A stretch of 50,248 nt of DNA, from the IMG/VR virus record IMGVR_UViG_3300022200_000065, positions 1 through 50,248 of that record; one strand, written 5' to 3'. Source of the stretch: a virus (taxonomy: Duplodnaviria; Caudoviricetes). Every line of letters starts with the position of its first letter. The stretch's first letter is position 1. The position numbers and the translations under genes were made by a program. Below the pieces are notes generated by a model, which was not told the DNA's origin, did not search any database, and saw nothing but the letters and a program-made list of their open reading frames with translations. This document shows positions 2,478 through 49,477 of this stretch, piece by piece.

Positions 2478-3073
2478 AATACCACCTCAAAATAATTTGA
2501 ATGACTTTGAGCCAGCATATCAAGTAAACCAAGCAATTGAACTTCTAAACCACCTGTTGCCCAATGTGGCGCATTTTTAACACAATCCCAACCGTTTAAA
2601 TTTTGATCTGTTAAACCTTCTAATGAAATCAGATCAACATTATCTGACCAACCCGTTCCAACAATTCGACCGTTTAACCGTTCAACTGGTTTATAGTTAC
2701 CAGAAAAGCGCAATTTAAAAAAATCAGATTGAAAACTTATAGCAACACCTTCTTTATTTATAAAAAATCCGTATGTTTTACTTTCAGACAAATAAACATG
2801 CTCAAACCCTAATGATTTAAGTTTATATGCTGCAATTTCAACCAATTGTTTACGGTGTGAATTATCAGCAACAACAACAAATTTACCAGCTTTATCCCAA
2901 TCTTTTCCATCCCACAAATGAGCTGATTTTTTGCCGTCTAAACATTCCATGCGTTCGGCACCATTGGACAAAACCGTTTTATATAACCCGTTTATTTCAT
3001 GTTTAAAAGTGTACACTTTGAACGCTTCGAACCCGTTGCCGTTTGTTGTTGGGAAAGCTTTTAAAGTTTTCAT
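2474..3073 (-). CDS. Hypothetical early protein (~199 aa)
   Basis: ORF track gives 2474..3091; the ATG at 3073 has an AAGGA RBS and is the likelier start. Confidence 0.8.
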   Translation of the reverse strand: MKTLKAFPTTNGNGFEAFKVYTFKHEINGLYKTVLSNGAERMECLDGKKSAHLWDGKDWDKAGKFVVVADNSHRKQLVEIAAYKLKSLGFEHVYLSESKTYGFFINKEGVAISFQSDFFKLRFSGNYKPVERLNGRIVGTGWSDNVDLISLEGLTDQNLNGWDCVKNAPHWATGGLEVQLLGLLDMLAQSHSNYFEVVL

Positions 3074-3077
3074 TTCG

Positions 3078-3215
3078 TTATTCCTTTTCACTAATTATGA
3101 CAAGTGCTACGGCACCAACGGCACCAACTAACCACACTAAAAAAGACACTGTATTAAAAATTGCTGCTGAACTTAAAGCAGCTGTTGCTAATAGTAAAAT
3201 GCTATCCAATTTCAT
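3078..3215 (-). CDS. Small membrane protein (45 aa)
   Basis: ATG at 3215 preceded by AGGTGG; almost entirely hydrophobic. Confidence 0.65.
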   Translation of the reverse strand: MKLDSILLLATAALSSAAIFNTVSFLVWLVGAVGAVALVIISEKE

Positions 3216-3225
3216 CGTTGCCACC

Positions 3226-3312
3226 TTATCCAAAAAATGCGCGTTTAAATTGAACACAAAACAAAGCTGTTCCAACGATTGCCACTACTAACAAAAATTC
3301 GATTAAGACCAT
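3226..3312 (-). CDS. First early peptide (28 aa, MVLIEFLLVVAIVGTALFCVQFKRAFFG), pilin-N-terminus-like
   Basis: Translated by hand; GGAG RBS 7 nt upstream; first ORF after the sigma70 promoter. Confidence 0.6.
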   Translation of the reverse strand: MVLIEFLLVVAIVGTALFCVQFKRAFFG

Positions 3313-3327
3313 CTTTTAACTCCATCT

Positions 3328-3381
3328 ACTGTTCCAACGGTATGACGTCATTATAGCTACTGTTCCAACCGTTGCAACAGT
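3328..3381. promoter_or_regulatory. Three ACNGTTNNAACNGT operator-like palindromes (3328, 3359, 3368)
   Basis: ACTGTTCCAACGGT, ACTGTTCCAACCGT and ACCGTTGCAACAGT overlap the +1 region, spacer and -35 of the early promoter. Confidence 0.7.
3350..3377 (-). promoter_or_regulatory. Sigma70-type early leftward promoter
   Basis: TTGCAA-16 bp-TATAAT on the minus strand, upstream of the early operon. Confidence 0.8.
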
Positions 3382-3445
3382 TATTTACTGATTTTCCACT
3401 ATATAAGCAATTATTTTCAATCTGCAATCACATGGTTTTATTCCT

Positions 3446-3505
3446 TTATAAATCAATGACTTACAATCAATAAATCATCAATTGATATAAGTCGTTGATT
3501 TATAA
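3446..3505. promoter_or_regulatory. 18-bp inverted repeat made of two IHF-consensus sites
   Basis: TTATAAATCAATGACTTA (3446-3463) and TAAGTCGTTGATTTATAA (3488-3505), 17/18 complementary; each matches WATCAANNNNTTR. Confidence 0.7.
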
Positions 3506-3656
3506 CGATTTACCGATTATCGAAAAAATCATAATCCCCTGGTTCACCAGGCCAGGACTGCTTTCGTCACCGGGTGCGTATAGGAATTAACCAGGGTTCA
3601 AATCACAAAGTGCTGCTTTAATGGAACAATCACCATTGCCCATGAATTTCTGTGGG

Positions 3657-4126
3657 TGAGACACTTTGAGACACTTCTTAAAAACGAAAGTGTCACACCG
3701 TCACCGTTGTAAGTCGTTGATTTGAAATAGAAATAAATGATGGTGTGACAGAATTTTTAAAAGTGTCACAGCAAGTGTCACACCCTATGTTATTGATTTA
3801 TATAATAAAAATGACCTTCTGAGACACTTTGAGCCAAAACCAGCAGGTAGCCATACTACTTTTTTATTCATTGGTAATCATTAATCATGGTTAATCATCA
3901 TTATCGTTGTGACAATTTCTTATATATTACTATTTAAGGTATATCTTTCTTTAAAAAGTAAATAAGTGTCTCAAAAAGGCAAAAAAGCTATATAAATCAA
4001 TAAGTTAAGGTGTGACAAATCGTGTGACACTTTTATATTGAAAGTGTCTCAGCTGGTTAATTCATTAGTAAAATCAGTAACTTACCAACTGGTCTGATGT
4101 GACACTTTGTTTTTGAAAGTGTCTCA
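3657..4126. other. Putative replication origin: TGWGACACTT iterons and IHF-like sites in dyad symmetry around an AT-rich core
   Basis: 11 perfect 10-mers (3657, 3667, 3688, 3761, 3773, 3820, 3964, 4023, 4042, 4098, 4117) plus degenerate copies; IHF-like sites at 3710, 3786, 3995, 4072; non-coding. Origin function is inferred. Confidence 0.7.
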
Positions 4127-4201
4127 TTTTACCGATTATGATAACAACTATAAATAACCGTGATGATAATCACCATCACCATCACCATTTATGATGTGAC
4201 A

Positions 4202-4400
4202 ACTGTTTAAACTGTGTGTACTGTTACAACTGTTGCAAGGTGCTGAACCAGCAAAGCCCGACCCGATGACGATAACCGACCGTGGCACCAGGTATAACCA
4301 GCATCAGTTAAGCTGACCGGTCACAGTAATCAGTATCACAGGTATCAGTGGTATCCGTTGTATCAGGTGTTCACTGTTTAAACGGTATCGACTGTACCGC
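4202..4400. repeat. Degenerate 9-bp-period repeats (ACNGT and GTATC lattices)
   Basis: ACTGT at 4202, 4211, 4220, 4229; GTATC at 4333, 4342, 4351, 4360; ACNGT at 4373, 4382, 4391. Confidence 0.75.
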
Positions 4401-4422
4401 CGTTATCTGGTATATACTGGCA

Positions 4423-4513
4423 ACATAGATTTTCGCCTTACCACATAGATTTTCGATGGTGGGGGTACACAAATGAGATAGGGGGTATTATGAGCAAGGC
4501 ACCGGGGGTATTA
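4423..4513 (+). repeat. Direct repeats ACATAGATTTTCG x2 and GGGGGTA x3
   Basis: 13-mers at 4423 and 4443; GGGGGTA at 4461, 4481 and 4504. Confidence 0.8.
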
Positions 4514-4726
4514 GTTCCACCAGTTGAATGTGTGATTGCAGATAATCAATACGTTTATAACCCACGTATTGTAATAAGCAGTATCTGTATGTTCGGTTAT
4601 GTTGGTAGCGACTGCATCAGTTTTGCTTTGTTAGGTGGTCATTGTGCGTCATGGTTTTTTGACACCCAAGTTGAATGCTGCAGAGCCATGCAGAGTATTT
4701 ATGATCAGCTGGGGGTGATTGAATGA
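4490..4726 (+). CDS. Hypothetical protein (78 aa)
   Basis: First ORF of the rightward operon, GGGGG RBS, ATGA overlap with the next gene. Confidence 0.6.
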   Translation: MSKAPGVLVPPVECVIADNQYVYNPRIVISSICMFGYVGSDCISFALLGGHCASWFFDTQVECCRAMQSIYDQLGVIE

Positions 4727-4926
4727 AACCTAAAGCACGATATGACCCAGTGTTTAAAGTTTGGATTCTTTGGGATGGTGTCAGCTTTAAAAACGGTTCT
4801 TATATTAGTTCTGATTTAACTGACGCCTTTTTACGGTGGCTCAACAATCAAAAACCGAATAGTTTTTCAGTGTTGACAATGCCCAGATTTAAAATAGTAA
4901 ATGGAAACTACCATGAAACTAAATAA
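4723..4926 (+). CDS. Hypothetical protein (67 aa)
   Basis: Coupled ORF, GGGGGTG RBS. Confidence 0.65.
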   Translation: MKPKARYDPVFKVWILWDGVSFKNGSYISSDLTDAFLRWLNNQKPNSFSVLTMPRFKIVNGNYHETK

Positions 4927-8535: not shown

Positions 8536-9297
8536 ATGAGCAAGATTGAAGGTGTAACACTTAACAGCACGTATGCCAAACAGGGTGCTGAACTGGGTAT
8601 CAAGGTAAACAAAACCTTCCTGGTGCCGGTAGAACACATCTACATTGAACCAGGGTTTAACATTCGTGATCTAGACCCTGAACACGTTGAAGCAATCCGC
8701 CAAGGTTACGACGCTGGCCAGCCTATTCCACCAATCACCGTTAAGACCACACCGCAAGGTTTCAAAGTGCTGGACGGTCATCACCGTTATTCAGCAGCCC
8801 AGTTAGCTGGTGTTACCCGCATTGAATGTAAAGAGTTTGCCGGTACTGATGCTGATATCGTGGCGCTGATGGTGACATCATCACAGGGTAAAAACTTATC
8901 ACCCATTGAACGTGGTCGTGCTTATCAGCGTCTGATTAATATGGGTCGTGACGTTGCTGAAATCGCCCAGCTGGTTAAACGTAGTCGTGCCGATGTTGAT
9001 AATCATTTGTTGTTAATGAGCGCCGGTGATGTTGTGTTAAAGGCCGTCAATGCTGGTGTTGTTGGTTCATCTGCTGTTGTGGCTGAACTGCGTAAATCAG
9101 GTGCTGAAGGTGTGGCCACCGTTGAAGCTGCTGTGAAGGTAGCCACCGAACAGGGTAAAAAGGTTAAACCAGCTGATTTAAACCCATTCACTAAAGCAGA
9201 CATCACCCGCGTTATGGAAATCCTGTGTGGTATGAATGCTGCTGGGTTACCTGCTGAACTGGGCGCACTAATCAATAAATACCGTGGGGTGGTGTGA
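8536..9297 (+). CDS. ParB/Srx-like N-terminal domain protein with HTH
   Basis: FNIR, PPITV and LDGHHRY motifs, then LSPIER and an HTH-like segment. Confidence 0.88.
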   Translation: MSKIEGVTLNSTYAKQGAELGIKVNKTFLVPVEHIYIEPGFNIRDLDPEHVEAIRQGYDAGQPIPPITVKTTPQGFKVLDGHHRYSAAQLAGVTRIECKEFAGTDADIVALMVTSSQGKNLSPIERGRAYQRLINMGRDVAEIAQLVKRSRADVDNHLLLMSAGDVVLKAVNAGVVGSSAVVAELRKSGAEGVATVEAAVKVATEQGKKVKPADLNPFTKADITRVMEILCGMNAAGLPAELGALINKYRGVV

Positions 9298-14523: not shown

Positions 14524-14922
14524 TTACACCGCCGTCATTTCACGATTGAAAAACACCAATGATGGAATATTCAATAAGTCACCAACTTCATTAGTGATTG
14601 CCCGATCATTCGCATCCTGGACCAGAAACACCTTTTCTGAAACTGTATCATAAATAGCAACACAAATGTCGTCGCTAATTAATGCCGTACCACTAGGGTC
14701 AATATTATTTTTAGCAGCAATAGTCACTTGCAAGTCATTACCAACATCAGCAAAAGCAATATCAGTACCACCAACAAGGGCAGCATCTGCAATAACCTTA
14801 CCTGCAAACGTGGCATAATTGTCAGTTTTTACTGGGTTTTTAACCAAAGCAATTCGGTTGGCAGTAGTAACCAAAATGTTTGGGCCGAATTTTTTAAAGT
14901 CAGAATGTGAATAGTTAGCCAT
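14524..14922 (-). CDS. Putative virion structural protein (132 aa)
   Basis: Strong GAGGA RBS, nearly identical to that of the DUF2190 capsid-associated gene; beta-rich. Confidence 0.6.
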   Translation of the reverse strand: MANYSHSDFKKFGPNILVTTANRIALVKNPVKTDNYATFAGKVIADAALVGGTDIAFADVGNDLQVTIAAKNNIDPSGTALISDDICVAIYDTVSEKVFLVQDANDRAITNEVGDLLNIPSLVFFNREMTAV

Positions 14923-14933
14923 GATAAATCCTC

Positions 14934-15986
14934 TTAGCGATAAATTGTAAAAATCGGAGTAACATTTTTAATTGTAAACGGTGATGGTAACGCTGTCACT
15001 TTTATATTAAAAGCATTTATTTCATCAGGTAAATTCTCACCAACAGTCAGAGCCTGGTTAATTTGCTGACTAATTATGATTTGGATTTCTTGTGTTTGCC
15101 AAGATGATATAGTTTGTGCTTCATTCAACTGTTCAGATGAAACAGACGTAACAACTTGTACACCAGATGTTTGGTCAACATCAACCAGTAGTGAATTATT
15201 AAGCTGTTCAGACTGACCTGCATTTACAAGTTGTGTTTCTAAAACAGATATTGTTGAAGCGTTATTAATCTGCTGACTGACAACAACAACATTGAACTGA
15301 TTGGTAAATACATCAACCAGTAGCGAATTATTAAGCTGTTCAGACTGACCAGCAGTTATAATTTGTGGTCCACCAGATTGCTCAATATCAATACTGATTG
15401 TGTTATTAATCTGCTGGCTGACAACAACAACATTAAATTGATTAGTAAATACATCAACCAGTAGTGAATTATTAAGTTGTTCAGACTGGCCAGCAGTTAT
15501 GATTTGTGACCCACCAGATTGCTCAACATCAACGCTAATTGTATTGTTAATCTGCTGGCTGACAACAATAGTATTAAATTGGTCAGTAAATACATCAACC
15601 AGTAGCGAATTATTAAGCTGTTCAGACTGACCAACAGTTATAATTTGCGTTTCTAAAACATCAATACTGATTGTGTTATTAATCTGTTCAGACTGATTTG
15701 CAGTTATACCTTGTATTTCTGAAACAGATATTGTTGAAGCGTTATTAATCTGCTGACTAACAATGACGACACTAAATTGATCAGTAAACACATCAACTAA
15801 TAACGAATTATTAAGCTGTTCAGACTGACTTACAGTTATACCTTGTGTTTCTGAAACAGATATTGCTGAAAAATTATTAAGCTGTTCAGACTGACCTGCA
15901 GTTACAACTTGCGACACAGGTTCGTCAGTAGCAGTTTCTAAATTTACACCGTATGGTTTTACGCCGTAAGCGTTAACGCCATACAT
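14934..15986 (-). CDS. Repeat-rich acidic protein, 13 units of ~22 aa with S(E/Q)Q(L/I)NN
   Basis: Repeats visible in both protein and DNA; central region has no K/R. Confidence 0.85.
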   Translation of the reverse strand: MYGVNAYGVKPYGVNLETATDEPVSQVVTAGQSEQLNNFSAISVSETQGITVSQSEQLNNSLLVDVFTDQFSVVIVSQQINNASTISVSEIQGITANQSEQINNTISIDVLETQIITVGQSEQLNNSLLVDVFTDQFNTIVVSQQINNTISVDVEQSGGSQIITAGQSEQLNNSLLVDVFTNQFNVVVVSQQINNTISIDIEQSGGPQIITAGQSEQLNNSLLVDVFTNQFNVVVVSQQINNASTISVLETQLVNAGQSEQLNNSLLVDVDQTSGVQVVTSVSSEQLNEAQTISSWQTQEIQIIISQQINQALTVGENLPDEINAFNIKVTALPSPFTIKNVTPIFTIYR

Positions 15987-16482
15987 ATACTAAAGCCATC
16001 AAACTTGGTAAAAGTTCATGCTGACCCGAATTAGGGTAGGACTTGATTGTGTCCTCTAATTTGTCACGCATACCCTGCAACATAAAATAATTTGTCGCGT
16101 ACAGTTCGGATTTATCTTTTATTTTAGCAACCAATGAATCTAATGGAATCCCACGAGAATTGGCCAATATTGTTATGTTAGGGCAATCATTAGGGTATGA
16201 ATTAGCTTCACGTTGTTGTATTTCCCAGCTATCCTTTTCAGCTTGAGTCACACCAGCAGTTAACGCTTCAACAGCCTCTACAAAAGATTGATTTATTTCA
16301 ACCAGCTTTTTAGCTTTTTCGACCGGCCACGGATTATACGTGTCAATTAATAACTGTGCTTGTTCTTGTGTCTCAGCGCCTTCTAAATACCAAACTGAAC
16401 CACGTTGATATAAACAACAATTAAAACTTTCGACATGTTCGGTTAATCCGTAACCCAACTCAAGTGGAATATTTACAATCAT
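15973..16482 (-). CDS. Tail-fibre-assembly-like protein
   Basis: E..SW..Q..EA...LA..RGI....LV.KI motif typical of fibre-associated phage proteins. Confidence 0.6.
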   Translation of the reverse strand: MIVNIPLELGYGLTEHVESFNCCLYQRGSVWYLEGAETQEQAQLLIDTYNPWPVEKAKKLVEINQSFVEAVEALTAGVTQAEKDSWEIQQREANSYPNDCPNITILANSRGIPLDSLVAKIKDKSELYATNYFMLQGMRDKLEDTIKSYPNSGQHELLPSLMALVYVWR

Positions 16483-18226: not shown

Positions 18227-18291
18227 GTTTCATTAGTGGTGGGCTTGTCATGCCCGAGGCTACCTCAAGGACGGAAAGCCATCATTAAACA
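18227..18291 (+). ncRNA. Candidate structured small/antisense RNA
   Basis: Begins at the predicted +1; folds by eye into a long bulged hairpin; no ORF; family not recognised. Confidence 0.35.
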
Positions 18292-20660
18292 ATTGGTGCA
18301 AACTTCACCAGTTGCAATCCTTTAAAACCCCTCACTTGCTTACCACCAACTCTAGCGCGTTCCTGAGTTATCCCCATCGGTGATGAATTGATTTCCCGTA
18401 CCACTTTACCCTGACTGTATGTGTGGGTTACTTCATGTTGTTTTGCCCACAGCTGATAGGTGCGATACAGATCATCATTTGAAGTAAACGCATTAGCATC
18501 CAACGAACAGACGTCATGGATAAACCGTGACATAGGGTTCATATCTTCAGCGATACATTCTTTTTCTTGCCGTCCGGTATCAGCTTCAGTGAATCGACCA
18601 TTAACACGTAAACGGTTTAAACCAATTAAAGCCCACTGAGCGATACCAGGTATTTCCTGCAGTAGTCGGTCAGTTAACCCGGCATCTTCCCTACCAGCTA
18701 CTGATTTATAAAATGGAAAAACCAGCATCCGGTTTACCAGTGCACCTGACGGGTCATTAAATTCAGGCATACCATTGGTTGATAAAATTAGTTTCACTTT
18801 AAAAACCGTGGTTTGAACACCTTTGTACATAACGTGGTAATCCATTGGGTCACCACCAACAATCGCTTTAAAGTTGGCTAATACAGCATCCCGCGTTGAT
18901 GATGAAACACTGTGGGCGTCCGGGATTAACCCCACTGAGGCGCTTGACAACTTATGTAACACTGAGTCTTTAACAAAATTGCTAAGACTTGGTGCCGATG
19001 TATTATGCTCACCAACCATGTGCCGAATGATGGCAGCAATAACACCTTTACCGGCACGAGATTTACCAACCAGAACAGCAAATTTTTGCAATGACACATC
19101 ACCCACTAAACAGTAACCAAGGAATTCTTGCAACTGATCAACAAGGCGTAAATCATAACTGAATATTTCCCGCAAAAACGCCAACCACCTTGGACATTCG
19201 GCCATCAGGTTATAATCGTACAATAGTTCATTAAACGTAAAGAAATCCGGTGTGTGTGGCATAATTTTCGGTGGTGTGCATGACAAATCAACCAGGCCGT
19301 TTTTAAAACAAACAACATCTTTTGCCAGAATACCTGTGTGTAACCAGGTGCCGTTCTCAATTGCCTTAATGTTCACCAAATCACGCAGGCAGGCAAAAAT
19401 ACCACTAACCAACTTATCAGCTGGTTTGAATGCTTTATAAAAACGTTGCACACCGGCGCGTAAAACTGAATCACTAACCAAACACCACGACTTACCGTTA
19501 AACACATAAAATATCTTTTCGCAACAAATCAACCTTGACCCATCAAAAGCCATACCATCAAACACTTTGGCCAAATCATAATGAGGTGATTTTGCATTCA
19601 TCATTGGGCGCATTGCTGCAGCATCTTTCTTGTCGAGCCTGTCACCGGTTCTGATCACTTCTTCAGTGCTTTGTGGTGGTAGTGGTGCCGGTACAGGTGG
19701 CAAGTTAGCGAATGAAGCAACAGCCGTTTTACAACCGGGTTCATTTCGTGCGTAGTGATAGGCACGTTCAACAACTTCATCAAAATGTGATTGTTCGTTC
19801 TGGCCCCACGGCGGCACACAACGTGGGTTGTAATGTTCCCACATAATCGCCTGAGCTACGTTCAGCGGTAAACCTTGGTCGTAACCATAACCAGCAACAC
19901 GAATCACTGTGGCCGTTCCTGAGCCTTGTACAGCTGGTTCTGCCATCACTTCAAGAAACTTGATAAACCGTTGACGCGCAACAGGTGAATCGTTGAACCC
20001 TGAACCGGTGCCAATGGCATCCCGACTGTTCAACCACTTATCTAATTTGTCAGCATTTTCAGCTGTGAGTGTAAAAGCGTTTGTGAATTCAGCAGCTTTA
20101 TATTTTCTGGTGATTGTTGCTGTGTTATCGACGGTGATAACGTACTGTTTCGGATTTAATGGGTCTTTAAAATGCAACGTACCTGGCGCACGTACCACCC
20201 TGGATGGGTCAACAACCTGTTCATCAGAACCAGTTGATAACGATATCCGGCGCTGCAGTTCACTAAATTGTTCCTGTGACGCAATATCATCAACCAGCCA
20301 GAATGCGTGGCCATGTGTTGCATCACGTTGTGTAATGAAATGTGGTGGTATAGGCCACACCGGTTGATCGATATTATCGAAGTCGGCAAACAGCGCACGA
20401 AAATTAACTATGTTTGCTTTTTTACGACCTTTACCATCTGAACCATTCAAACCAATGTAAACACCACACTGATTGTTTTGTGACTGGATTAAAAACGGCA
20501 ATGCCTGTTGATAAGTCGCAACGAATTGTGCGGCTAAGTCATCACGTTTTAATCCCTTCGGGTCGTAATAAACTTGCCACGTAACCGGTGTACTTTCGTT
20601 ACCAGTCAATAGCCGAATGAAATGACGGATTTGATCCGCATTAAATGCAGGTGCTGTCAT
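18285..20660 (-). CDS. DNA primase-helicase (RepB-like primase plus D5/P4-type SF3 helicase)
   Basis: FADFD, HAFW and R..R.PG..H.K primase motifs; FKNG..D and Walker A GKSRAGKG; C-terminal wHTH-like region. Confidence 0.92.
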   Translation of the reverse strand: MTAPAFNADQIRHFIRLLTGNESTPVTWQVYYDPKGLKRDDLAAQFVATYQQALPFLIQSQNNQCGVYIGLNGSDGKGRKKANIVNFRALFADFDNIDQPVWPIPPHFITQRDATHGHAFWLVDDIASQEQFSELQRRISLSTGSDEQVVDPSRVVRAPGTLHFKDPLNPKQYVITVDNTATITRKYKAAEFTNAFTLTAENADKLDKWLNSRDAIGTGSGFNDSPVARQRFIKFLEVMAEPAVQGSGTATVIRVAGYGYDQGLPLNVAQAIMWEHYNPRCVPPWGQNEQSHFDEVVERAYHYARNEPGCKTAVASFANLPPVPAPLPPQSTEEVIRTGDRLDKKDAAAMRPMMNAKSPHYDLAKVFDGMAFDGSRLICCEKIFYVFNGKSWCLVSDSVLRAGVQRFYKAFKPADKLVSGIFACLRDLVNIKAIENGTWLHTGILAKDVVCFKNGLVDLSCTPPKIMPHTPDFFTFNELLYDYNLMAECPRWLAFLREIFSYDLRLVDQLQEFLGYCLVGDVSLQKFAVLVGKSRAGKGVIAAIIRHMVGEHNTSAPSLSNFVKDSVLHKLSSASVGLIPDAHSVSSSTRDAVLANFKAIVGGDPMDYHVMYKGVQTTVFKVKLILSTNGMPEFNDPSGALVNRMLVFPFYKSVAGREDAGLTDRLLQEIPGIAQWALIGLNRLRVNGRFTEADTGRQEKECIAEDMNPMSRFIHDVCSLDANAFTSNDDLYRTYQLWAKQHEVTHTYSQGKVVREINSSPMGITQERARVGGKQVRGFKGLQLVKFAPIV

Positions 20661-20672
20661 TGAGTCACCCGG

Positions 20673-20948
20673 CTATTGTTGGTTATTTTTGGCGGTGATA
20701 TATTTCGGGTGTGCAAACACAAACTTTGCTTGTTCAATACAACTCAAGCTAATTCGTGATGATTTATCCCGTAAGTATTGACAGACTGTAGATTCTTTAA
20801 GACCGGTTGCAGCAATAACAGCTTCAAGGCCATGTTTCTCACACATCTGAACAAGTTCAGCTTGTCTTTCACGCATTGTTTCCCGTTCATCACGACTGGC
20901 GATAATCCGTTTAATGGTGATCTGCATATTTGTCATCGTTTCAACCAA
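20673..20948 (-). CDS. Small HTH-like DNA-binding protein
   Basis: GLEAVIAATGLKESTVCQYL helix-turn-helix pattern; the start may be 20936. Confidence 0.55.
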   Translation of the reverse strand: MVETMTNMQITIKRIIASRDERETMRERQAELVQMCEKHGLEAVIAATGLKESTVCQYLRDKSSRISLSCIEQAKFVFAHPKYITAKNNQQ

Positions 20949-24697: not shown

Positions 24698-26401
24698 ATG
24701 ATTCAACTAAGAGAACACCAGACCGAGACAGCTAACAAGGTTGATGAACTACACAGTCAAGCATTTAAAAACGTCATGGCTGTATTACCCACAGGTGCCG
24801 GTAAAACCATCCTCATGGCCCATTTTGCATGGCGGTGTAACCAGCGTGGGGAAGGTGTTGTGATATTTGCACACCGTGATGTTTTGCTTGAACAAATCAG
24901 TGAAGCGCTTTGCTTGTTTAATGTTTATCACAGCATTTACAGCAGCAAACCTACCGTAAATTTTATCAGCAATAACAATCACCAGAAATTTGGTAACAGC
25001 TATTATCGTGAATCTTCAATGGTCATCTTGGCATCCGTTGATACTTTCTGGCGGCGTGATGTTGCTGCAATTTTACCCTACATCAAACTGTGGATGATGG
25101 ATGAAGGTCACCACATGACCAAGGATAGCAAGTGGCACCGTTGTATTGAAAAGCTTGACGAACAACCAGGCACAAAGGGAATGCTGGTTACAGCAACACC
25201 ACTAAGGGCTGACCGTAAAGGTTTGGGTCGTCATGCTTCAGGCATTGCTGATGCTATGTACGTCGGCACCAACATGCACAAACTTATTGAACGAAAACTG
25301 TTGTGTATGTACAAAATCTATGTGCCTGAATCAATGGTCGATACCTCTGATGTTAATATAACCAGTAGTGGTGATTACAACAGGGATAAACTGGCCAAAG
25401 CAACTGATAAATCAAATATCACCGGCAACGTGATTGAAAACTGGAAAGATAAAGCGTTTGGTAAACGCACCATTATTTTTACCGTAAACATAGCCCACAG
25501 TGATCATGTTGCTGCACAGTTTCGGGCTGCTGGTGTTAAGGCCGTCAGTTTATCATCAGAGGATTTACCATCGGTACGGAAAAAAGAAATCGAGGATTTC
25601 CGGTCAGGTAGGACCACGATACTAGTCAACTGTGATTTGTTTTCTGAGGGCTTTGACGTTCCTGGCGTTGAGGTGGTTATCCAACTTCGTAAAACCATGT
25701 CGTATGCCATGTTTAAACAGCAGTTTGGCCGGATGCTTCGTATACTTGACGGTAAGTTGTTCGGCATCTTAATTGACCATGTGGGTAACGTACCCTACTT
25801 CATGGATAAATATAACCTACAGTACCCGCACGATGACCCTGAATGGACGCTGGACGATTCACCAAAAAAAACCAACGGGTCTAGTGGCAAGACAATATTT
25901 ACTATCACTTGCAAAAAATGTCGTGCGTTTTATGCACCGGCACCAAACACAGACCAAAAAGATGTTTGCCCCGAGTGTCAGCACAACCACAGTGAGGATG
26001 AACAGTTAGCAACTATCCGGTCGTTTCAGGAAAAACAAGGCAAGATTGTTGAATATCAGCTTGACCTCGAACTGTTTAAAAAACTGCTGGCTGAACGTGC
26101 CAAAGTCGATGAACCGCCTGAAAACGTTCGTAGGCGAATGCAATACGCAGGGGCTGCAGATATTGTGGTTAGCGCTACTTACAACAACCATGCAAAGCGC
26201 CGGAATGCACAGATCATAATGAGGCATTACCTACAGCGTTGGTGTATGCAACGAGCCAAACAGATGCCCCATTTACCACCACCACTGATACAACGTGAAT
26301 TTGAATTAGCGTTCGGTGTGGCAGTTATCAAAGCTGTTGTGTTGTCTGAACCAGAGGCGATCAAGTTAACTGAACGAATTCAAATTGAACTGAAGGATTA
26401 A
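24698..26401 (+). CDS. Superfamily 2 DNA helicase with C-terminal zinc ribbon
   Basis: PTGAGKT, DEGHH, TATP, EGFDVP and QQFGR.LR motifs; CKKC...CPEC. Confidence 0.93.
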   Translation: MIQLREHQTETANKVDELHSQAFKNVMAVLPTGAGKTILMAHFAWRCNQRGEGVVIFAHRDVLLEQISEALCLFNVYHSIYSSKPTVNFISNNNHQKFGNSYYRESSMVILASVDTFWRRDVAAILPYIKLWMMDEGHHMTKDSKWHRCIEKLDEQPGTKGMLVTATPLRADRKGLGRHASGIADAMYVGTNMHKLIERKLLCMYKIYVPESMVDTSDVNITSSGDYNRDKLAKATDKSNITGNVIENWKDKAFGKRTIIFTVNIAHSDHVAAQFRAAGVKAVSLSSEDLPSVRKKEIEDFRSGRTTILVNCDLFSEGFDVPGVEVVIQLRKTMSYAMFKQQFGRMLRILDGKLFGILIDHVGNVPYFMDKYNLQYPHDDPEWTLDDSPKKTNGSSGKTIFTITCKKCRAFYAPAPNTDQKDVCPECQHNHSEDEQLATIRSFQEKQGKIVEYQLDLELFKKLLAERAKVDEPPENVRRRMQYAGAADIVVSATYNNHAKRRNAQIIMRHYLQRWCMQRAKQMPHLPPPLIQREFELAFGVAVIKAVVLSEPEAIKLTERIQIELKD

Positions 26402-26403
26402 CG

Positions 26404-28473
26404 ATGTCCATTACATTCCCGGCAAAGCGTAAAACAGAATGGCCCTGGCCAAACGATTACGGCTACGATGAAGAATCATACCCAAACTTTTACAGTCTTG
26501 CTGCAAGGCATATTCAGACAAATGCACTTTACGTTTTCGAGATTAGCGACTGGCGGGATGACACTGACGCATTGATAAACTGGATGTACTGGTTACATCA
26601 GAATAAATGCAGGATGCTTGGTTTTAATAATGTTGGTTATGATTACCTGTTGATGCACTTTATTTTTATGAATTGCAAAGCCTGGGGAAGTTATAGCGGT
26701 AGTCAAAAGGCTTACATGATTTACCAATATTCAGCAAACCTTTTTAAAGGTGAAAACGAAACTGAAGATGGATACCGTGAAAGACGTTACAAAACGTCAA
26801 TCAGACCTAAAGATGTGATTATTCCACAAATTGATTTATTCAAGATTTACCACTTTGACAACCAGGCCAAAAATACCAGTTTAAAAGTTTTACAAATCAA
26901 CATGAGGTCGAAGAACGTTAGAGATTTACCAATTCCACCAGGTACACGAATTACTGCTGAACAAAGGCCGGTGTTGCTTTTGTACAACGTTAACGATACT
27001 GATGAAACCATTGGGTTTGCAATGTTCAGCGTTGACGAAATAAAGCTGCGGGAAACCATGTCAGCCAAGTTTGGTATTGATATGACCAACTTCAGTGAGG
27101 GTAAAATGGGTGAAGAAATAATCAGGCTGCAGCTGAATAACGCTGGCCTGAACACCCGAGGCAAAACACCAAGGGCGTCGATTGCACTTCGTGATGTAAT
27201 TTTTCCGTATATCAGATTCAATCACCCCGAGTTTCAACGAGTTCACCAATTCTTACTGGGTGAAGTGATCACTAAAACCAAACTAGACAAAAAGGACGAT
27301 GACACTGAAGGTTACCCATGTGCTGTAATCAATGGGTTTGGTTGGCAGTTTGGTCGTGGTGGTATGCACGCTTCTGTTTTAAGTTCGATTATCAAAGCTG
27401 ACGATTATTACGAAATTATTGACATTGACGTTATCAGCTTTTACCCGAGAACCAGCATCGTCAACAAGACTTACCCAGCACACTTAGGGCCGCAATTCTG
27501 TGAAGAATACGACGGTGTTTTCACAATGCGTGGCCAATACCCTAAAGATAAATTTCCGATGGAAAACTTGGCACTGAAATATTCTTTGAACGTACCTTAT
27601 GGTAAGTCAAACAGCCCGTTTAGCTTTCTCTATGACCCACAGTACACAATGACTACGACGATCAACTGTCAATTATTGATTTGTATGTTGGGTGAATGGT
27701 TAATGCAAATACCAGACATCAGTTTTATTCAGGTGAACACAGACGGTATCACATTCAAGGTACCACGTGTTTTCCGTGGTCATGTTGAAAGTATTTGTAA
27801 AGCTTGGGAACAGTTCACCTGTCTGGAACTCGAATACGCTTTTTATCAGGCTATGTATATTCGTGATGTAAACAACTACATTGCCCACGCTGTTAACGGT
27901 AAAATCAAAAGCAAAGGTGCCTATGTTCACAAGGAAATCCCGTGGCACAAAGACCACAGCAGCGTAATTATTGCAAGGGCTGTTGAAGGGTATTTGTTAC
28001 GTGGTGAAGATGTTGTACAGCAAATTATGGCTTGTCGTGACCCGTTTGATTTCATGATCAAGGCCAAGGTACCACGGTCATCAAAACTTATGATGTTTAA
28101 CCAAGATGGAACCAGAACGGAACTACAGAACACCACCAGATATTATGTTGCTGTTAGTGGTGGTCGTCTGGTTAAAATCATGCCACCAACACCGGCAATG
28201 CGTGAACACTGGAATACCGGCACCCATTACATCAGGCACCGTGACCAGGATTACAAGGTTGTGAAACCTGATGGTAAACGTCCTGCTAAAACTTATGACC
28301 TGGTGCCACTGAATCAGATAGCACCCGAACCCTACGACCGGGAGATTTCATTGGGTAGTAAATGGCTGGCTGCAGACTGTGCCAATGTTGATGATTTCAA
28401 TTGGTCAAACCTGAATTACAACTATTATATCGAAGAAGCACGCAAATTAATTGACCCACTGTTAGAACAGTGA
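26404..28473 (+). CDS. Family B DNA polymerase with 3'-5' exonuclease domain
   Basis: YDEE, GFN...YD, YN.ND exonuclease motifs; DVISFYP, K..LN..YG and NTDG polymerase motifs. Confidence 0.93.
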   Translation: MSITFPAKRKTEWPWPNDYGYDEESYPNFYSLAARHIQTNALYVFEISDWRDDTDALINWMYWLHQNKCRMLGFNNVGYDYLLMHFIFMNCKAWGSYSGSQKAYMIYQYSANLFKGENETEDGYRERRYKTSIRPKDVIIPQIDLFKIYHFDNQAKNTSLKVLQINMRSKNVRDLPIPPGTRITAEQRPVLLLYNVNDTDETIGFAMFSVDEIKLRETMSAKFGIDMTNFSEGKMGEEIIRLQLNNAGLNTRGKTPRASIALRDVIFPYIRFNHPEFQRVHQFLLGEVITKTKLDKKDDDTEGYPCAVINGFGWQFGRGGMHASVLSSIIKADDYYEIIDIDVISFYPRTSIVNKTYPAHLGPQFCEEYDGVFTMRGQYPKDKFPMENLALKYSLNVPYGKSNSPFSFLYDPQYTMTTTINCQLLICMLGEWLMQIPDISFIQVNTDGITFKVPRVFRGHVESICKAWEQFTCLELEYAFYQAMYIRDVNNYIAHAVNGKIKSKGAYVHKEIPWHKDHSSVIIARAVEGYLLRGEDVVQQIMACRDPFDFMIKAKVPRSSKLMMFNQDGTRTELQNTTRYYVAVSGGRLVKIMPPTPAMREHWNTGTHYIRHRDQDYKVVKPDGKRPAKTYDLVPLNQIAPEPYDREISLGSKWLAADCANVDDFNWSNLNYNYYIEEARKLIDPLLEQ

Positions 28474-29750: not shown

Positions 29751-31526
29751 CTACTCCATGTGCCTGACAAGATTTGCAGTTTGTGTAACATCAATATCAC
29801 CGTCACTGTTTACACTGGCAGTAATACTCACACTATCACAAGTTGCTTTATACACCTCACCGAAATATGTAACACCAATCAGCATACCCTTAACCAAAGG
29901 TGGTAGATCATCCATGACCGGTAAAGACACTGTGACACGTTCTTTTTTACCGGTATCAACAATTTTTGCAGTACCAACTAATCTGGCTGCTGTATCAGTG
30001 ACGATCAAAGAATTGCTAACGTCTGACGTAGGTATGTTTCCAGCTGTGCCTGTGCGCCTCACATGACGACTAACGCCTTGTTGTTCACCACGAACCCAGC
30101 ACGAGTCACAAAGTTGATTTAGTTCGTCACGTGCACTGTATGTAATAATTACAGCATCGTGAATGTTAATATCGGAGACTTCGGTACCCATGTTCCAAGG
30201 TGTGACCGGCCAACGAGGAACCACATTAATTACTGATGTAAATTCATCCGGTATCAGGATGCAACCAACCATATCAGCAATTTCATTTACTGATTCTATA
30301 GGTGCTTTACCGGTGATGCTAAAAACACCTGCAGGTATGTTAAAATCCAGAAATCCAATAAGTTGAACAGACCAACCAGTACCTGTAAGTATATCGCCCA
30401 TAATCCCCGCTAACGAACGATCTACGTTATTGCTATAGCTGACCAGCGATTTTAAGGGTGACGCTATCTGTGCTATTCTGCTGCGGCATGACGCTGAATA
30501 TTGTGACCGCCCAAACGACTGTGATCGGGTAATTTCTTCAGGTAACAAATAAAAATCATAACCGTTAATTTCAACCAGTAACAGATTATTAATTGCGTTA
30601 TCTGCATCACCTTTACTTGAAAAGTCAATACTACCACTTGCTGTGAACTGACCTCGACTATTTGATATCGAAACGGAATCAACAACAATCGGTGTGCCGT
30701 CCGACACTCGGGTAACAATTAACGTTGGTTGCATTAAATATGCCCTTCTTATCTGCGGTTCGATAGGTACTTTAAAATCAAAGTTTGGTAATTGACCACC
30801 ACCATCCAACGAACCACCACCATCATCGTAGTAGCAAAATTCTTCAGATGGTGTAAATCTAATAATTGCTGGGTTAGTCGGTGTAACTAACAAATTACTA
30901 AATCGAATTGTGACTTTGCCGATTGCTGGTCTGTAATTCGTGCTACAAATCCAGCGTGGTTTATGTGGCCCATAGAATATATTGTATTCCACTTCATCTT
31001 GGTCACTACCACTTCGCCATATAACATTTAAATCGACATGCTTTGGGTGCAGTGATGATTCAAAATTAATTTTAGTTAGCGTTTCATGTTTTATTAACTT
31101 TGACTGCCAATAACAATCTATTCTGTTTTCCTTTTGTGGAGGTATTAACCAGCTTGTTTTTGTTTCAGTACAGTAAAGATTAGTAATATGCCATGCAGGG
31201 TGTATTAATTGTTCCACTAAAGATGTGTCGATATATGTCAAATTAAATACAGTGTCATGCCACCCCATAACTTGCCAAGGAATGTTTAGTTGATTCCCAA
31301 CCTTAGCCAAACCTGTATAAGCAATTGATATATCATTTCCTCTACGAAATAACGACCAATTTAATAATATACCAACCTCATGATCTAAAGTATCGGAAAA
31401 ATCAACACTTGTAACAATACCAATCTGACCCCAATCAAACGGGATGGTAGGTATTGGTTCAAACCGCAATGTGATCGGTATTGTTGTATTTTCAACAAGT
31501 GTAGAAAATCTTAACTCAATTGTCAT
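29751..31526 (-). CDS. Tail tip / hub-like protein
   Basis: Size, position and beta-rich hub-like C-terminal half. Confidence 0.65.
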   Translation of the reverse strand: MTIELRFSTLVENTTIPITLRFEPIPTIPFDWGQIGIVTSVDFSDTLDHEVGILLNWSLFRRGNDISIAYTGLAKVGNQLNIPWQVMGWHDTVFNLTYIDTSLVEQLIHPAWHITNLYCTETKTSWLIPPQKENRIDCYWQSKLIKHETLTKINFESSLHPKHVDLNVIWRSGSDQDEVEYNIFYGPHKPRWICSTNYRPAIGKVTIRFSNLLVTPTNPAIIRFTPSEEFCYYDDGGGSLDGGGQLPNFDFKVPIEPQIRRAYLMQPTLIVTRVSDGTPIVVDSVSISNSRGQFTASGSIDFSSKGDADNAINNLLLVEINGYDFYLLPEEITRSQSFGRSQYSASCRSRIAQIASPLKSLVSYSNNVDRSLAGIMGDILTGTGWSVQLIGFLDFNIPAGVFSITGKAPIESVNEIADMVGCILIPDEFTSVINVVPRWPVTPWNMGTEVSDINIHDAVIITYSARDELNQLCDSCWVRGEQQGVSRHVRRTGTAGNIPTSDVSNSLIVTDTAARLVGTAKIVDTGKKERVTVSLPVMDDLPPLVKGMLIGVTYFGEVYKATCDSVSITASVNSDGDIDVTQTANLVRHME

Positions 31527-40212: not shown

Positions 40213-40992
40213 TTATGCGGTCATTTCCACACTGAAATATTGTGATTCACCAGCTGCTACAATGGTGTCATCTGCCAAAATCTCAAATGAGATTGGTAAC
40301 GCCCCAAAATCTTCACTAATTAAATCTAACGCTTGGGTCGGACTGAACTTAATTTTGTGGCAGACAACACTTACAGCCTTACCATTATCAGCGTCATTGA
40401 ACCCGTTAAAAATCAACCGGTATTCGAGTGATGATTGTGTAATCGCTTGAACACTGAACGTATCCACACTGGTATAAGTTACCTTGATATCAACACCAGC
40501 ATTCAGTGTATCAGCGGTTGTGATTGCAGAACCTTCAGGGATAAACAAACCAGCGCGTTCAACTATGTAATCAACGTTGTTGACATACGTAACCAGCCCT
40601 GTTGCGGAATCTTTGACAGTAATTGTTTCATCAACGTCTGGAATACTATCAAGTTTTACAAACGCATCTTTAAATGCTTTTTGAACTTCATCTGTGATCG
40701 CTGTACCGGTGTTCGCAGTAACCAACGACCGCAACGCCGTTGCCAGTGTTTGCGGTTGGAATGAAAGTGCATTAATTGTTGCAGTTACGTCAGTGATCGC
40801 CGATTGTGATGCAATATTACCACCACCAGGGGTTTGAAAGTTTCGCTGTGTTTTTTTATCTTCACCAATAGCGAAGCTAAAACTATCAGCGTTACCGAAT
40901 GCGTATGCTGGACCAAACACACCGGCGATAATTTGTTGAATATAAATTTTACCACCGCCGATAAAAGAACGGTTACGGGTTGCATTACTCAT
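40213..40992 (-). CDS. Major tail tube protein
   Basis: IG.GKIY, GN...F and F.P...L.LI..DF motifs; position; followed by a terminator. Confidence 0.85.
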   Translation of the reverse strand: MSNATRNRSFIGGGKIYIQQIIAGVFGPAYAFGNADSFSFAIGEDKKTQRNFQTPGGGNIASQSAITDVTATINALSFQPQTLATALRSLVTANTGTAITDEVQKAFKDAFVKLDSIPDVDETITVKDSATGLVTYVNNVDYIVERAGLFIPEGSAITTADTLNAGVDIKVTYTSVDTFSVQAITQSSLEYRLIFNGFNDADNGKAVSVVCHKIKFSPTQALDLISEDFGALPISFEILADDTIVAAGESQYFSVEMTA

Positions 40993-47466: not shown

Positions 47467-49477
47467 TTCGTTTTAACCAGCCTTTGCGTCGTAACGTTGG
47501 TGTTTTTTGCTTAGATTGAATCATAGTATCAACGTCAACCGGTTTAGAGTCAACTACCTGTTTTGTAGTACCGTATAAACGTTCACGAGCTTTCCAATCA
47601 TCATCACTAAACCGGTCAATTTGTAGCATAGCAGCAGCAGCCCGGTTGTAAGCATGAGTATCTAAAAAGTGGTTATCTTTTCTAAGCTTTTCCCAATGAA
47701 AAGTAATAAATCCGCGTCTATCTTCCATTCTTACAAGCTGTTCAGCAGTAATTTGTTTGAAATATTCATCGTCATATTCAGGGAAATGACAGTATCCTGA
47801 CGGGTATTTTTTACCGGCTGCGAGTTCTTCATCAGTCGGTTTCTTCATGTTTAACCAGGCATAAAATTCCTCTTTACAAACGCTGGAACCAACTGGCCAC
47901 ATCATCAGACCCCGGCTAATTCTCTTACCATCAACAGCAACATCAACCGGTGTTGGTGTACCAATAACAGTTTTTAAATTTTCGCTTTTCTCACCTTTGA
48001 TGGCAACGAACCGGTCAGACATGAAGTTTCGGACGATATTATAAACGCGCTGGGTTCTGAAACCCGAGTCAATAACCGCCTTTTCAACAGGCATCATTAC
48101 ATCAATCTGATTGGGGAATTCACGACGAACAAGATTATGAATATAGTCTTGCATTTCGTCACTGTTAATATCACCCGCCTGATAACCTTTATCCAGGGAC
48201 CAGTTTTCTTTATCACGACCCCACGCGATAAACTCCCAGTAAATACCTTTGGTCTGGACGTCGATGGCCAAAGTGATCATCAATCCGCCAGCCGGTACGG
48301 TGCCAATTTCATAACTGTCACGGCGTTCGTATAAGCGTTCCCAGTTTGGTTGTTCACCAAGTTCCCGCCATGTTCTAGCCAACCGGGTATTGTAAAAAGC
48401 TTTTAACAGGTTACTGTTGCCCAGCGCTTTAATGTATTCCAGTGCCAGCGTTTCAATTGGTGTAAATGGGCTGGCCAACGATGACATTTTAAAACCACGG
48501 TGCCACGTGATTTCTGGTCGTTTGTGTAACCAGTAGCCGTTACGGATTGAATTTAAACGGTCACCCTCAGACCACTTTTCACCACACCCACCGCCAGCAG
48601 TATCACAGATAATGTGTGCGAACTCATGTTGCAGTTCACCAGTTACAACGTCAGCAGGGATGATGACATCAGTGAACCAATCCAATTCCTTGGCGTGGCC
48701 ACAGTGTGGGCAGACCTGTAAAAAGATGCCTTGGCTGGACGCCTGATATTCTTGTTCTACACGAGATAGACCCTGAACCGTAGGGCTGCAGGCAACTATC
48801 TTTTTGGCACGCTTACCATAGGTTGTAGCGCGACCCCAGGCAACAGCAATAGAGTCACCCTCACCACCTGTACCACCTTCACCAGCACCCACGTTTAACG
48901 GGTATTTATCCACTTCATCAAACATCAGGATACGGCAAGCCCTCATTGCCAAATCGTCAGGGTTACGCGCTGACACAATACTGATCTGACCGCCTGGATA
49001 TTGCTTCTGTAAAATGGTGTTACCTTCACCCCGGCGATTCTCTGTGAAAATTTCTCGGGTAACAGGCGTGGCCTTGACCGACTTCATAAACCGTTCTTTG
49101 GACCAGGCTTCGGCAAGTTCTTTTTTCGGTGCCACATACATCAGTGGGGATGGTTCTTGGTGCATAAAAAACAAAGCAGTGTTGATCATCAGTTCTGTTT
49201 TCATGGCCTGGATGCAACACATTACAGTTACTTCCTGAACCTTTGGGTCAGATATAGCTAACATCGGTTCACGCGCTGGGGGCATCCTGTCTGTTTTCCA
49301 TCGTCCAGGCTCTGCAGAATTGTCAGGTAAGTGACGGAATTCATCAGCCCACTGAACCAGGTCAAGCTTTGGTAATGCCCTCAGACAACTTTGTTTTGCC
49401 TTAGTGATCCGTACAGCAAGATATTGTTTAGCTTGTCTTGACGTCTGCAGAATGTTCAATCGTAGGTTTCCTGACAA
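47459..49477 (-). CDS. Terminase large subunit, lambda gpA family
   Basis: WAD..R, Q..KTE, DEVDKYP, SPT, CPHC, DVQ, IDSG and NH.LD motifs. Confidence 0.96.
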   Translation of the reverse strand: MSGNLRLNILQTSRQAKQYLAVRITKAKQSCLRALPKLDLVQWADEFRHLPDNSAEPGRWKTDRMPPAREPMLAISDPKVQEVTVMCCIQAMKTELMINTALFFMHQEPSPLMYVAPKKELAEAWSKERFMKSVKATPVTREIFTENRRGEGNTILQKQYPGGQISIVSARNPDDLAMRACRILMFDEVDKYPLNVGAGEGGTGGEGDSIAVAWGRATTYGKRAKKIVACSPTVQGLSRVEQEYQASSQGIFLQVCPHCGHAKELDWFTDVIIPADVVTGELQHEFAHIICDTAGGGCGEKWSEGDRLNSIRNGYWLHKRPEITWHRGFKMSSLASPFTPIETLALEYIKALGNSNLLKAFYNTRLARTWRELGEQPNWERLYERRDSYEIGTVPAGGLMITLAIDVQTKGIYWEFIAWGRDKENWSLDKGYQAGDINSDEMQDYIHNLVRREFPNQIDVMMPVEKAVIDSGFRTQRVYNIVRNFMSDRFVAIKGEKSENLKTVIGTPTPVDVAVDGKRISRGLMMWPVGSSVCKEEFYAWLNMKKPTDEELAAGKKYPSGYCHFPEYDDEYFKQITAEQLVRMEDRRGFITFHWEKLRKDNHFLDTHAYNRAAAAMLQIDRFSDDDWKARERLYGTTKQVVDSKPVDVDTMIQSKQKTPTLRRKGWLKRNG

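Follow-up and report, generated by a model that had tools for sequence, protein, structure and literature searches.

The intergenic segment at positions 3657–4126 of the siphovirus genome IMGVR_UViG_3300022200_000065 (a complete, linear IMG/VR record of 50,248 bp with the CheckV completeness of 100, analyzed here over its entire length and hereinafter called the window) appears to be a replication origin. This segment is a two-fold symmetric module of short repeats (iterons), sites resembling those of the integration host factor (IHF) and an AT-rich center, and the same genome encodes, on the minus strand at 18285–20660, a 791-aa primase-helicase that is the proposed initiator. On balance, and with moderate confidence, we interpret the module as a phage replication origin of the iteron type known from replicons with self-loading superfamily 3 (SF3) primase-helicases, such as P4, the Staphylococcus aureus pathogenicity islands (SaPI) and the phage-inducible chromosomal islands (PICI), probably assisted by IHF. 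This reading is the best supported one because the layout is present in all 10 enzyme-carrying siphoviruses of this group and was not found in the four terminase relatives that lack the enzyme, the center is easily melted, and the predicted C-terminal domain of the enzyme is a winged helix of the P4 type. Most likely, then, this is an origin of a known kind that is newly seen in this siphovirus clade. A first-pass annotation of the DNA, made from the letters alone, had already suggested an origin served by the primase-helicase; the suggestion is partly supported, on the grounds just listed, but the co-variation of the repeats with the enzyme does not reach significance.

The module is located in a 1.2-kb gap without open reading frames (ORFs) between two divergent operons (3291–4490). 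The repeat, AAGTGTCWCA, is present in 11 exact copies in the record, every one inside 3657–4126, with the start positions 3657(−), 3667(−), 3688(+), 3761(+), 3773(+), 3820(−), 3964(+), 4023(−), 4042(+), 4098(−) and 4117(+). The same pattern reversed, used as a control, has a single match in the record. When up to one mismatch is allowed, 21 matches are detected against 9.43 expected, a number that was reached in none of 100 shuffles.

The symmetry was assessed by scoring all two-fold axes of the genome (~99,000), ungapped, over 235 bp on each side. The axis at 3896.5 (start and end positions of paired elements sum to 7793) is the best of these, with 114 of the 235 positions paired, which is about 7.5 standard deviations above the genome mean (25.6%, standard deviation 3.1%); the axis with the sum of 7795 ranks third. 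A stretch of 47 nt in the two arms, 3758–3804 and 3989–4035, is 85% complementary. In a gapped alignment of the arms, the named elements match at 78 of their 96 positions and the sequence outside them at 76 of 144. For this reason, the arms are read as a decayed but genuine inverted repeat, in which the elements are better kept than the spacers and the spacers are not unrelated to each other. The mirrored architecture about ~3896.5 described in the first-pass annotation is thus confirmed by the genome-wide ranking and by the confinement of the exact repeats to the module, and its view that positions rather than sequence are conserved turns out to be half right: the elements are indeed preferentially kept, but the spacers still match at about half of their positions.

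The sites are organized in three forms, namely direct doublets, palindromic units and inward-facing single sites that flank the center. The direct doublets are either abutting or spaced by 12 bp (3657/3667, 3761/3773 and 4011/4023). The palindromic units, TGWGACACTT-N9-11-AAGTGTCWCA, span 29–31 bp each and are found at 3667–3697, 4023–4051 and 4098–4126. The inward-facing single sites, at 3820 and 3964, lie one per side of the center. Seven sites to the left of 3830–3963 and six sites to the right are oriented as mirror images.

Read from the left, the module begins with two abutting direct iterons on the minus strand (3657–3676, that is, 3657–3666 and 3667–3676; two exact AAGTGTCTCA copies, detected by Tandem Repeats Finder with the period of 10), the second of which is palindromic with the exact copy AAGTGTCACA on the plus strand at 3688–3697, the half-sites being 11 nt apart. 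These are followed by the IHF-like site of the outer left arm (3710–3722, minus strand; exact WATCAANNNNTTR), a site type that is kept in the relatives; a degenerate iteron (3744–3753, minus strand) that mirrors 4042–4051 and preserves the TGTGACA core, with three mismatches to the 10-mer; two exact direct iterons on the plus strand, 12 bp apart (3761–3782, comprising 3761–3770 and 3773–3782), inside the 47-nt complementary stretch; the IHF-like site of the inner left arm (3786–3798, minus strand; one mismatch to the consensus), which mirrors 3995–4007; and the innermost left iteron (3820–3829, minus strand, exact), which borders the core. Within the core, an unpaired iteron with one mismatch is located at 3908–3917 on the minus strand. 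The right arm consists of the innermost right iteron (3964–3973, plus strand, exact); the inner IHF-like site (3995–4007, plus strand; exact WATCAANNNNTTR); two direct iterons on the minus strand, 12 bp apart (4011–4032; the copy at 4011–4020 with two mismatches and the one at 4023–4032 exact); the exact plus-strand iteron at 4042–4051, the palindromic partner of 4023–4032 with 9 nt between them; the outer IHF-like site (4072–4084, plus strand; one mismatch), which mirrors 3710–3722; and the outermost right palindromic unit (4098–4126), composed of exact iterons at 4098–4107 (minus strand) and 4117–4126 (plus strand) and overlapping a promoter-like site at 4113–4142. The pairing originally listed, six iteron pairs and two IHF-like pairs about one axis, is therefore largely but not completely borne out. 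Four of the iteron pairs are exact and the other two include the degenerate copies at 3744 and 4011, the copies at 3657 and 3908 are unpaired, and both IHF-like pairs (3710/4072 and 3786/3995) are present, each as one exact copy and one copy with a single mismatch.

The core, 3830–3963, is a candidate DNA-unwinding element. Its GC content is 26.9%, compared to 41.8% for the genome, and it includes most of the least stable 100-bp window of the entire genome (3865–3964; dG of −107.5 against the mean of −132.9 and the standard deviation of 7.0), in agreement with the AT-rich core noted in the first pass. At the dyad center, the 8-mer ATGATTAA is present twice, in exact form, at 3881 and 3891.

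Exact matches to the IHF consensus, WATCAANNNNTTR, are found 12 times in the genome against 4.99 expected, and this count was reached in none of 100 shuffles; four of the 12 lie within 3451–4007. The module itself contains two exact sites along with two copies with one mismatch, and the A/T-rich flank of IHF sites is in place. Two further exact sites outside the module, 3451 (+) and 3488 (−), form an inverted pair (3446–3505) with 18-nt arms that are 94% complementary, between the module and the leftward promoter-like site. The 3446–3505 segment belongs to the second most AT-rich stretch of the genome, and the relative L034 likewise has two IHF-consensus sites upstream of its terminase-side promoter.

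Relatives of the window phage were collected by an alignment search of viral contigs with the terminase, which identified 40 loci and is the source of the records G001–G010. When single proteins were used as queries against viral contigs, one useful locus each was obtained with TerL and the ParB-like protein and none with the flanking protein or the primase-helicase; the alignment-based scans worked. The nearest annotated relatives by the DNA polymerase, with ~50% identity, are Vibrio phages 1.049.O and 1.083.O, for which the listed hosts are Shewanella, and Shewanella phage 1/44. The module and the primase-helicase are present together in all 10 siphoviruses of this group (the window, 1.049.O, 1.083.O, 1/44 and the IMG/VR records G001–G005 and G009), and the divergent gap that houses the module is syntenic in all of them. 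The top axis of the whole genome falls in this gap in 1.049.O and 1/44; in 1.083.O, the gap axis ranks third. Conversely, the module was not found in any of the four terminase relatives without the primase-helicase (G006, G007, G008 and G010; three whole genomes and one 22.5-kb piece).

What the ten genomes have in common is a layout of two arms in which a short repeat forms doublets and palindromic units, with IHF-like sites between them. In all nine genomes that were mapped, the innermost repeats face each other across an AT-rich center, 104–177 bp apart. The repeat itself varies: it is TGWGACAC in the window and 1.083.O, GTGGCACA in 1.049.O and 1/44, and TAGGACA, GGACGCATTT, CCACGGTTGG, GCCCGTATTT, GGACAAAAG and TGACACAA in the other six carriers, while the IHF-like site is nearly unchanged throughout (28 exact sites in the 6.67 kb of the ten modules, with the consensus AAATCAATGACTTA). 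This pattern fits a phage-encoded reader with drifting specificity combined with a conserved, probably host-encoded, bending factor. None of the small flanking genes is common to the window and the three annotated relatives, so that the module does not travel with a neighboring small regulator.

Dyad scans can also pick up coding tandem repeats, as illustrated by G009. In this genome (L065), the highest dyad score belongs to a ~12-nt coding tandem repeat of the GCTGCTACAGGW type (15000–15400) inside the ORF 14883–16037; this axis was rejected as a module, and the true module is located at ~3920–4320. In two of the relatives without the primase-helicase, five direct copies of CCCGGTCA with 16–24-bp spacing were observed (40691–40769 in G010, or L070, and 30699–30780 in G007, or L075), which looks like a different, direct-repeat iteron set of another replication module. 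On the terminase side of the module, every relative examined has one to three tandem copies of an element in which a short hairpin precedes CC(A/T)ATTAAAG(TG), e.g., 3616–3641 (minus strand) in the window, 41495–41558 in L011, ~170–290 in L013, ~6410–6437 in L034 and ~5860–5885 in L036. The stem sequences of this hairpin vary between phages, and the element is upstream of the terminase-side early promoter.

Matches to PHROGs, Pfam and PDB sequences indicate that the primase-helicase consists of an archaeo-eukaryotic primase (AEP)-type primase-polymerase, a D5_N domain, an SF3 helicase and a C-terminal winged helix. The Pfam hits are D5_N and DUF5906; in a search of PDB with a profile of the enzyme, the AEP-type part matches 6zp9 (E = 2.2e-5) and the helicase part matches 7OLA, the PriRep chain of SaPI5 (E = 3.8e-24). 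The proposed iteron reader is the winged helix at approximately residues 705–791 (18288–18548, minus strand), which is identified from a predicted model and fold matches. In the profile search, the C-terminal stretch matches the winged-helix DNA-binding domains of the RFX family (E = 0.004); a phmmer search of PDB with the C-terminal 132 residues alone retrieved no match, whereas the profile and fold searches did. The AlphaFold model of residues 640–791 has a mean predicted local distance difference test (pLDDT) score of 76.3, with the means of 10-residue blocks between 86 and 92 over the last domain. A Foldseek search with this model identifies RFX5 (E = 2.5e-4) and RFX1 (E = 1.2e-3), and structural alignment gives Z scores of 10.5 for the DNA-binding domain of RFX1 (1dp7) and 10.4 for RFX5. 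The alignment with the solved origin-binding domain of P4, 1ka8, covers 79 residues with the Z score of 9.5 and the root-mean-square deviation of 2.2 Å. By this model, the C-terminal domain of the enzyme is a winged helix of the same type as the origin-binding domain of P4. The winged-helix type found at the end of the P4 alpha protein and of pRN1 ORF904 has two conserved tyrosines in helix 2, according to the relevant part of PMC2777425. In the window enzyme, Y93 and Y96 of the 152-residue query (in a LYxxY stretch), which may correspond to the published tyrosines, are invariant in an alignment of 21 sequences.

Three other proteins were considered as readers of the repeat and rejected. The small helix-turn-helix (HTH) protein encoded just upstream of the primase-helicase (20673–20948) is present in all nine genomes compared, but its recognition helix is nearly invariant and, because of this constancy, cannot explain the variable repeats. 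A PapB-like regulator was detected in two of five records, below the family cut-off. For the 312-aa protein encoded first in the replication operon, neither a family nor a fold lead was obtained, and a tblastn search found no match to it in G001 or G004; its Ala/Pro-rich stretches look like low-complexity linkers.

Under the origin hypothesis, the C-terminal winged helix of the 791-aa enzyme would read 13–14 TGWGACACTT sites, arranged as single sites, direct doublets and 29–31-bp palindromes in two mirror arms. Host IHF would bend each arm at two sites and thereby bring the outer and inner sites together. The two protein-DNA assemblies could then face each other over the ~135-bp AT-rich center and melt it, two helicase rings would be loaded in opposite directions, the primase domain of the enzyme would synthesize primers, and the phage DNA polymerase would extend them. 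Given that the outermost right unit overlaps a promoter-like site, its occupancy may additionally damp rightward early transcription. A more elaborate scenario can be envisaged, in which the module is an IHF-wrapped symmetric platform: in each arm, about seven sites bound by winged helices and two IHF bends would fold into a compact complex, and two SF3 rings would be loaded head-to-head on the ~135-bp center in the manner of SV40 and papillomavirus origins; the repeat and the winged helix would make up a co-changing, exchangeable specificity pair across this clade of aquatic siphoviruses, and firing would be tied to early promoters that are under separate ACTGT-type operators. Taken as a whole, this scenario is possible but doubtful, and it is put forward tentatively.

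The closest parallels come from satellite elements. SaPI origins comprise 6–12 iterons that are split by a central AT-rich region and opposed on its two sides; the iterons are recognized by the winged-helix domain of Rep, an SF3 helicase that loads itself and that in SaPI5 is fused to a primase, as described in the part of PMC9371898 that deals with these origins. The window matches this arrangement in having two opposed repeat sets around an AT-rich, easily melted center and in encoding, in the same replicon, a proposed SF3 initiator with a predicted C-terminal winged helix that is similar to the SaPI5 protein. It differs in that the array is larger (13–14 sites over 470 bp), with near-exact two-fold symmetry, palindromic units and four IHF-like sites; in that the module is 14 kb away from the initiator gene, whereas SaPI origins are directly behind rep; and in that the replicon is not a satellite but a siphovirus of 50 kb that has Gram-negative hosts and looks lytic. 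In the PICI origins of E. coli, an AT-rich region is always bordered by two sets of iterons, and Pri-Rep is required for replication (PMC6092414, in the portion on these elements). The two iteron sets around an AT-rich region, e.g., in EcCICFT073, are shared with the window, but the genomic setting is different, the PICI origin abutting rep, and the primase part of the window enzyme is AEP-like (6zp9); furthermore, IHF sites are not mentioned in that portion of the PICI report, in contrast to the four IHF-like sites in the window.

The P4 alpha protein has the same three parts as the window enzyme, namely a primase, an SF3 helicase and, at the C-terminus, a winged helix that binds the origin in P4 and aligns with the window model, but the primase of P4 alpha is of the DnaG type (PMC2777425, in part), unlike the AEP primase-polymerase matched here. 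The iteron sequences of the two systems are unrelated. The P4 ori and crr regions contain octamer iterons in direct and inverted orientation; a second cis region comparable to crr was not identified in the window. In SV40 and papillomaviruses, the large T antigen and E1, respectively, form opposed SF3 double hexamers on two-fold symmetric short sites next to easily melted DNA. The comparison with these viruses concerns the mode of action only, without a sequence or family link beyond the SF3 fold: their origin-binding domains are different, their origins are far smaller, and IHF is not involved. In the pSC101, R6K gamma and lambda origins, too, iterons occur together with an AT-rich region and a bending protein of the host, but the respective Rep or O proteins recruit host DnaB, whereas the window enzyme belongs to the self-loading helicase type.

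Most lytic phages lack a mapped replication origin, and the literature searched contains no description of one for this clade. If the origin assignment is correct, the module would provide a precisely bounded origin in a group with cultured Shewanella members, and the ten modules would represent a natural series of origins with one grammar and different repeats, suited to the study of origin recognition by a winged-helix helicase and of shifts in its specificity. It would also mean that host IHF is built into an origin of a self-loading helicase. For annotation purposes, the grammar, i.e., phage-specific repeats, AAATCAATGACTTA sites and an AT-rich center, is directly searchable in related viral contigs.

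The dependence between the repeats and the winged helix was analyzed across the carriers of the module. The last ~90 residues are the most variable part of the enzyme, with the mean pairwise identity of 0.31–0.39 compared to 0.5–0.6 in the helicase core. At about equal core identity (0.61–0.66), the winged helix of the window shares 60–65% identity with its counterparts in the three phages whose repeats are nearly identical and 29–47% with those in G009, G004 and G001. Among the 32 residues that separate the phages with TGWGACAC from those with GTGGCACA (four phages), six fall in the last 50 alignment columns. Cross-matching of iterons correlates with winged-helix identity with the Spearman coefficient of 0.48, against 0.43 for core identity (45 pairs from 10 genomes).

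Several observations weigh against the assignment of the module as an IHF-assisted origin of the primase-helicase. When core identity is regressed out, the above correlation drops to 0.26 over the same 45 pairs and is not significant (label-permutation p ~0.11). Moreover, G009 is a counter-example, with the GTGTCA repeat core as in the window but a winged helix that is only 29% identical. Accordingly, the proposed link between the winged helix and the repeat rests on homology, co-occurrence and precedent, not on demonstrated co-variation. The module is ~14 kb from the primase-helicase gene, and the distance is ~7 kb or more in the relatives, so the adjacency to the initiator gene that is typical of, albeit not defining for, SaPI and PICI origins is not observed. 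Arrays of at least five copies on both strands were found in none of the five distant carriers, complete or nearly complete records with another terminase type in which the enzyme is 42–46% identical; nor was a comparable array found in Edwardsiella phage MSW-3, the repeats of which are, by coordinates, mostly inside annotated coding regions. The rich array is hence not obligatory for this enzyme family but rather a feature of one clade, and the expectation that the symmetry is conserved in relatives holds for the 10 enzyme-carrying siphoviruses but not for the five distant carriers. In two of the latter, G013 and G014, the AT-rich gap is simpler and contains a single IHF-like site and the short element AAAGAGTTTAAGA, close variants of which are recognizable by eye in the centers of L013, G004 and G009. 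With respect to IHF, the module sites are candidate IHF sites, assigned by consensus match only; the four 'free' positions of the consensus are likewise conserved across the modules, so that a protein other than IHF could bind there. Finally, the module lies between early promoters, with its right edge over a promoter-like site, and a transcriptional or dual role is possible.

An alternative explanation, which we regard as unlikely, is that the module is a control region for early transcription, in which the repeats would be operators of a phage regulator of the divergent operons and IHF would shape a repression loop, with no role in replication. The location between divergent operons is compatible with such a function, as is the rightward promoter-like site under the outermost right unit (4113–4142, plus strand; TTGAAA-18-TATGAT, a consensus match only). 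In 1.049.O, the outer palindrome adjoins the first gene of the non-terminase operon, and the 29–31-bp palindromic units resemble dimer operators. However, 13–14 sites are spread over 470 bp around an AT-rich center without a convincing outward promoter, and promoter-like hits are not enriched in 3000–4800 (8 against 5.9 expected). The leftward promoter-like site, assigned to the terminase-side early operon (3350–3377, minus strand; TTGCAA-16-TATAAT), is 280 bp outside the module; with one site outside and the other at the edge, the symmetry of the module does not mirror the promoters. An inward-facing promoter-like sequence, GTCACA-18-TATAAT (3777–3806), was dismissed as coincidental, arising from an iteron and the A/T flank of an IHF-like site. 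The lack of flanking small genes common to the relatives and the conserved recognition helix of the one small HTH protein that is shared also argue against a dedicated regulator of this kind.

Furthermore, the early promoters possess a conserved palindrome of their own. ACTGTT-NN-AACAGT with up to one mismatch is found at nine sites (3328, 3359, 3368, 4202, 4220, 4373, 28458, 28478 and 50213), all of which are, by coordinate comparison, outside annotated ORFs; with up to two mismatches, there are 15 sites against 4.5 expected. These palindromes bracket the leftward early promoter, which is embedded in ACTGTT/AACAGT sequences, and two exact copies are located just past the DNA polymerase gene. 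In the relatives, ACTGT-type repeats, in places as the full palindrome, adjoin or cover early promoters. Therefore, ACTGTT-NN-AACAGT looks like the operator of a regulator that is conserved across the clade, for which the small HTH protein (20673–20948) is one candidate reader, and the iterons are not needed to explain promoter control.

The possibility that the module is a centromere-like parS array for the ParB-like protein, with IHF assisting, was raised in the first-pass annotation and is weakened. A protein with an HTH_ParB domain is indeed encoded 4.4 kb away (8536–9297), and some plasmid centromeres combine inverted-repeat sites with IHF, but the ParB-like gene was found in only six of the 10 module carriers (the window, L012, L013, G001, G004 and G009) and not in the other four (L011, G002, G003 and G005), the phage looks lytic, and a highly meltable center would be out of place in a centromere. 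We consider this function very improbable. Least probable of all is a cos/pac packaging or site-specific recombination site, with the repeats bound by a terminase or recombinase: the large terminase is of the lambda type, and lambda cosB and attP have IHF sites alongside repeats that bind proteins, but the module is ~4 kb and eight genes away from terS rather than next to it at a genome end, the full-length records of at least five relatives start 0.7–1.5 kb upstream of the large-terminase gene, with a similar arrangement in the window as counted from its right end, and integrase, invertase and protelomerase families were not found among the ORFs scanned. The position of the record ends near the terminase genes, along with the 13-bp array at the left end, places the packaging site at the ends of the record. 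This array consists of 11.5 tandem copies of the 13-mer ATGATTAACGATG (11–160) and is followed by 7- and 15-bp arrays of the GTGATGT type (161–290); it includes ATGATTAA, the same 8-mer that is present at the dyad center of the module. The terminase may bind these left-end tandem arrays close to the genome end.

The remaining features of the genome are those of a siphovirus, according to the PHROGs and Pfam scans. The genome encodes a large terminase of the lambda type, a protease-capsid fusion and a long tape-measure protein. In addition to the primase-helicase, the replication set comprises a DNA polymerase (26404–28473), an SF2 helicase (24698–26401), a DUF2800 exonuclease, an Enc34-type single-stranded DNA-binding protein and a VRR-NUC-like nuclease. 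Given that none of the integrase, recombinase, invertase and protelomerase families was found among the scanned ORFs of the window in PHROGs and Pfam, the phage looks lytic. To the left of the gap that contains the module, the minus-strand genes are directed at the record's left end and, continuing over the ends, at terS (49456–49941), which is near the right end, the record terminating 307 bp upstream of it; to the right, plus-strand early genes start at 4490. No tRNA genes were found, and a search of Rfam gave only four chance-level matches (E = 0.37–0.82), far below the gathering scores. A blastn search of 50,697 phage records with the 3300–4500 region retrieved zero matches; contigs from relatives with ~91% identity span 3683–4311, and those of a run tentatively taken as RNA span 3523–3744 and 4100–4307, to which no significance is attached. 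Cumulative GC skew, a check proposed in the first pass, has a minimum near 3–4 kb, but this was set aside as evidence of an origin because the skew tracks gene orientation. The ten sequencing runs that contain the window phage, none of them listed as RNA, are labeled as freshwater metagenomes, and the cultured relatives infect Shewanella.

Downstream of the rightward promoter-like site, at 4163–4210, there is a 15-codon ORF, MIITITITIYDVTTV, that is built on (ATCACC)x3.3. No ribosome-binding site was seen for this ORF, which may resemble a leader peptide, possibly by chance, and overlaps a hairpin flagged as terminator-like on the minus strand.

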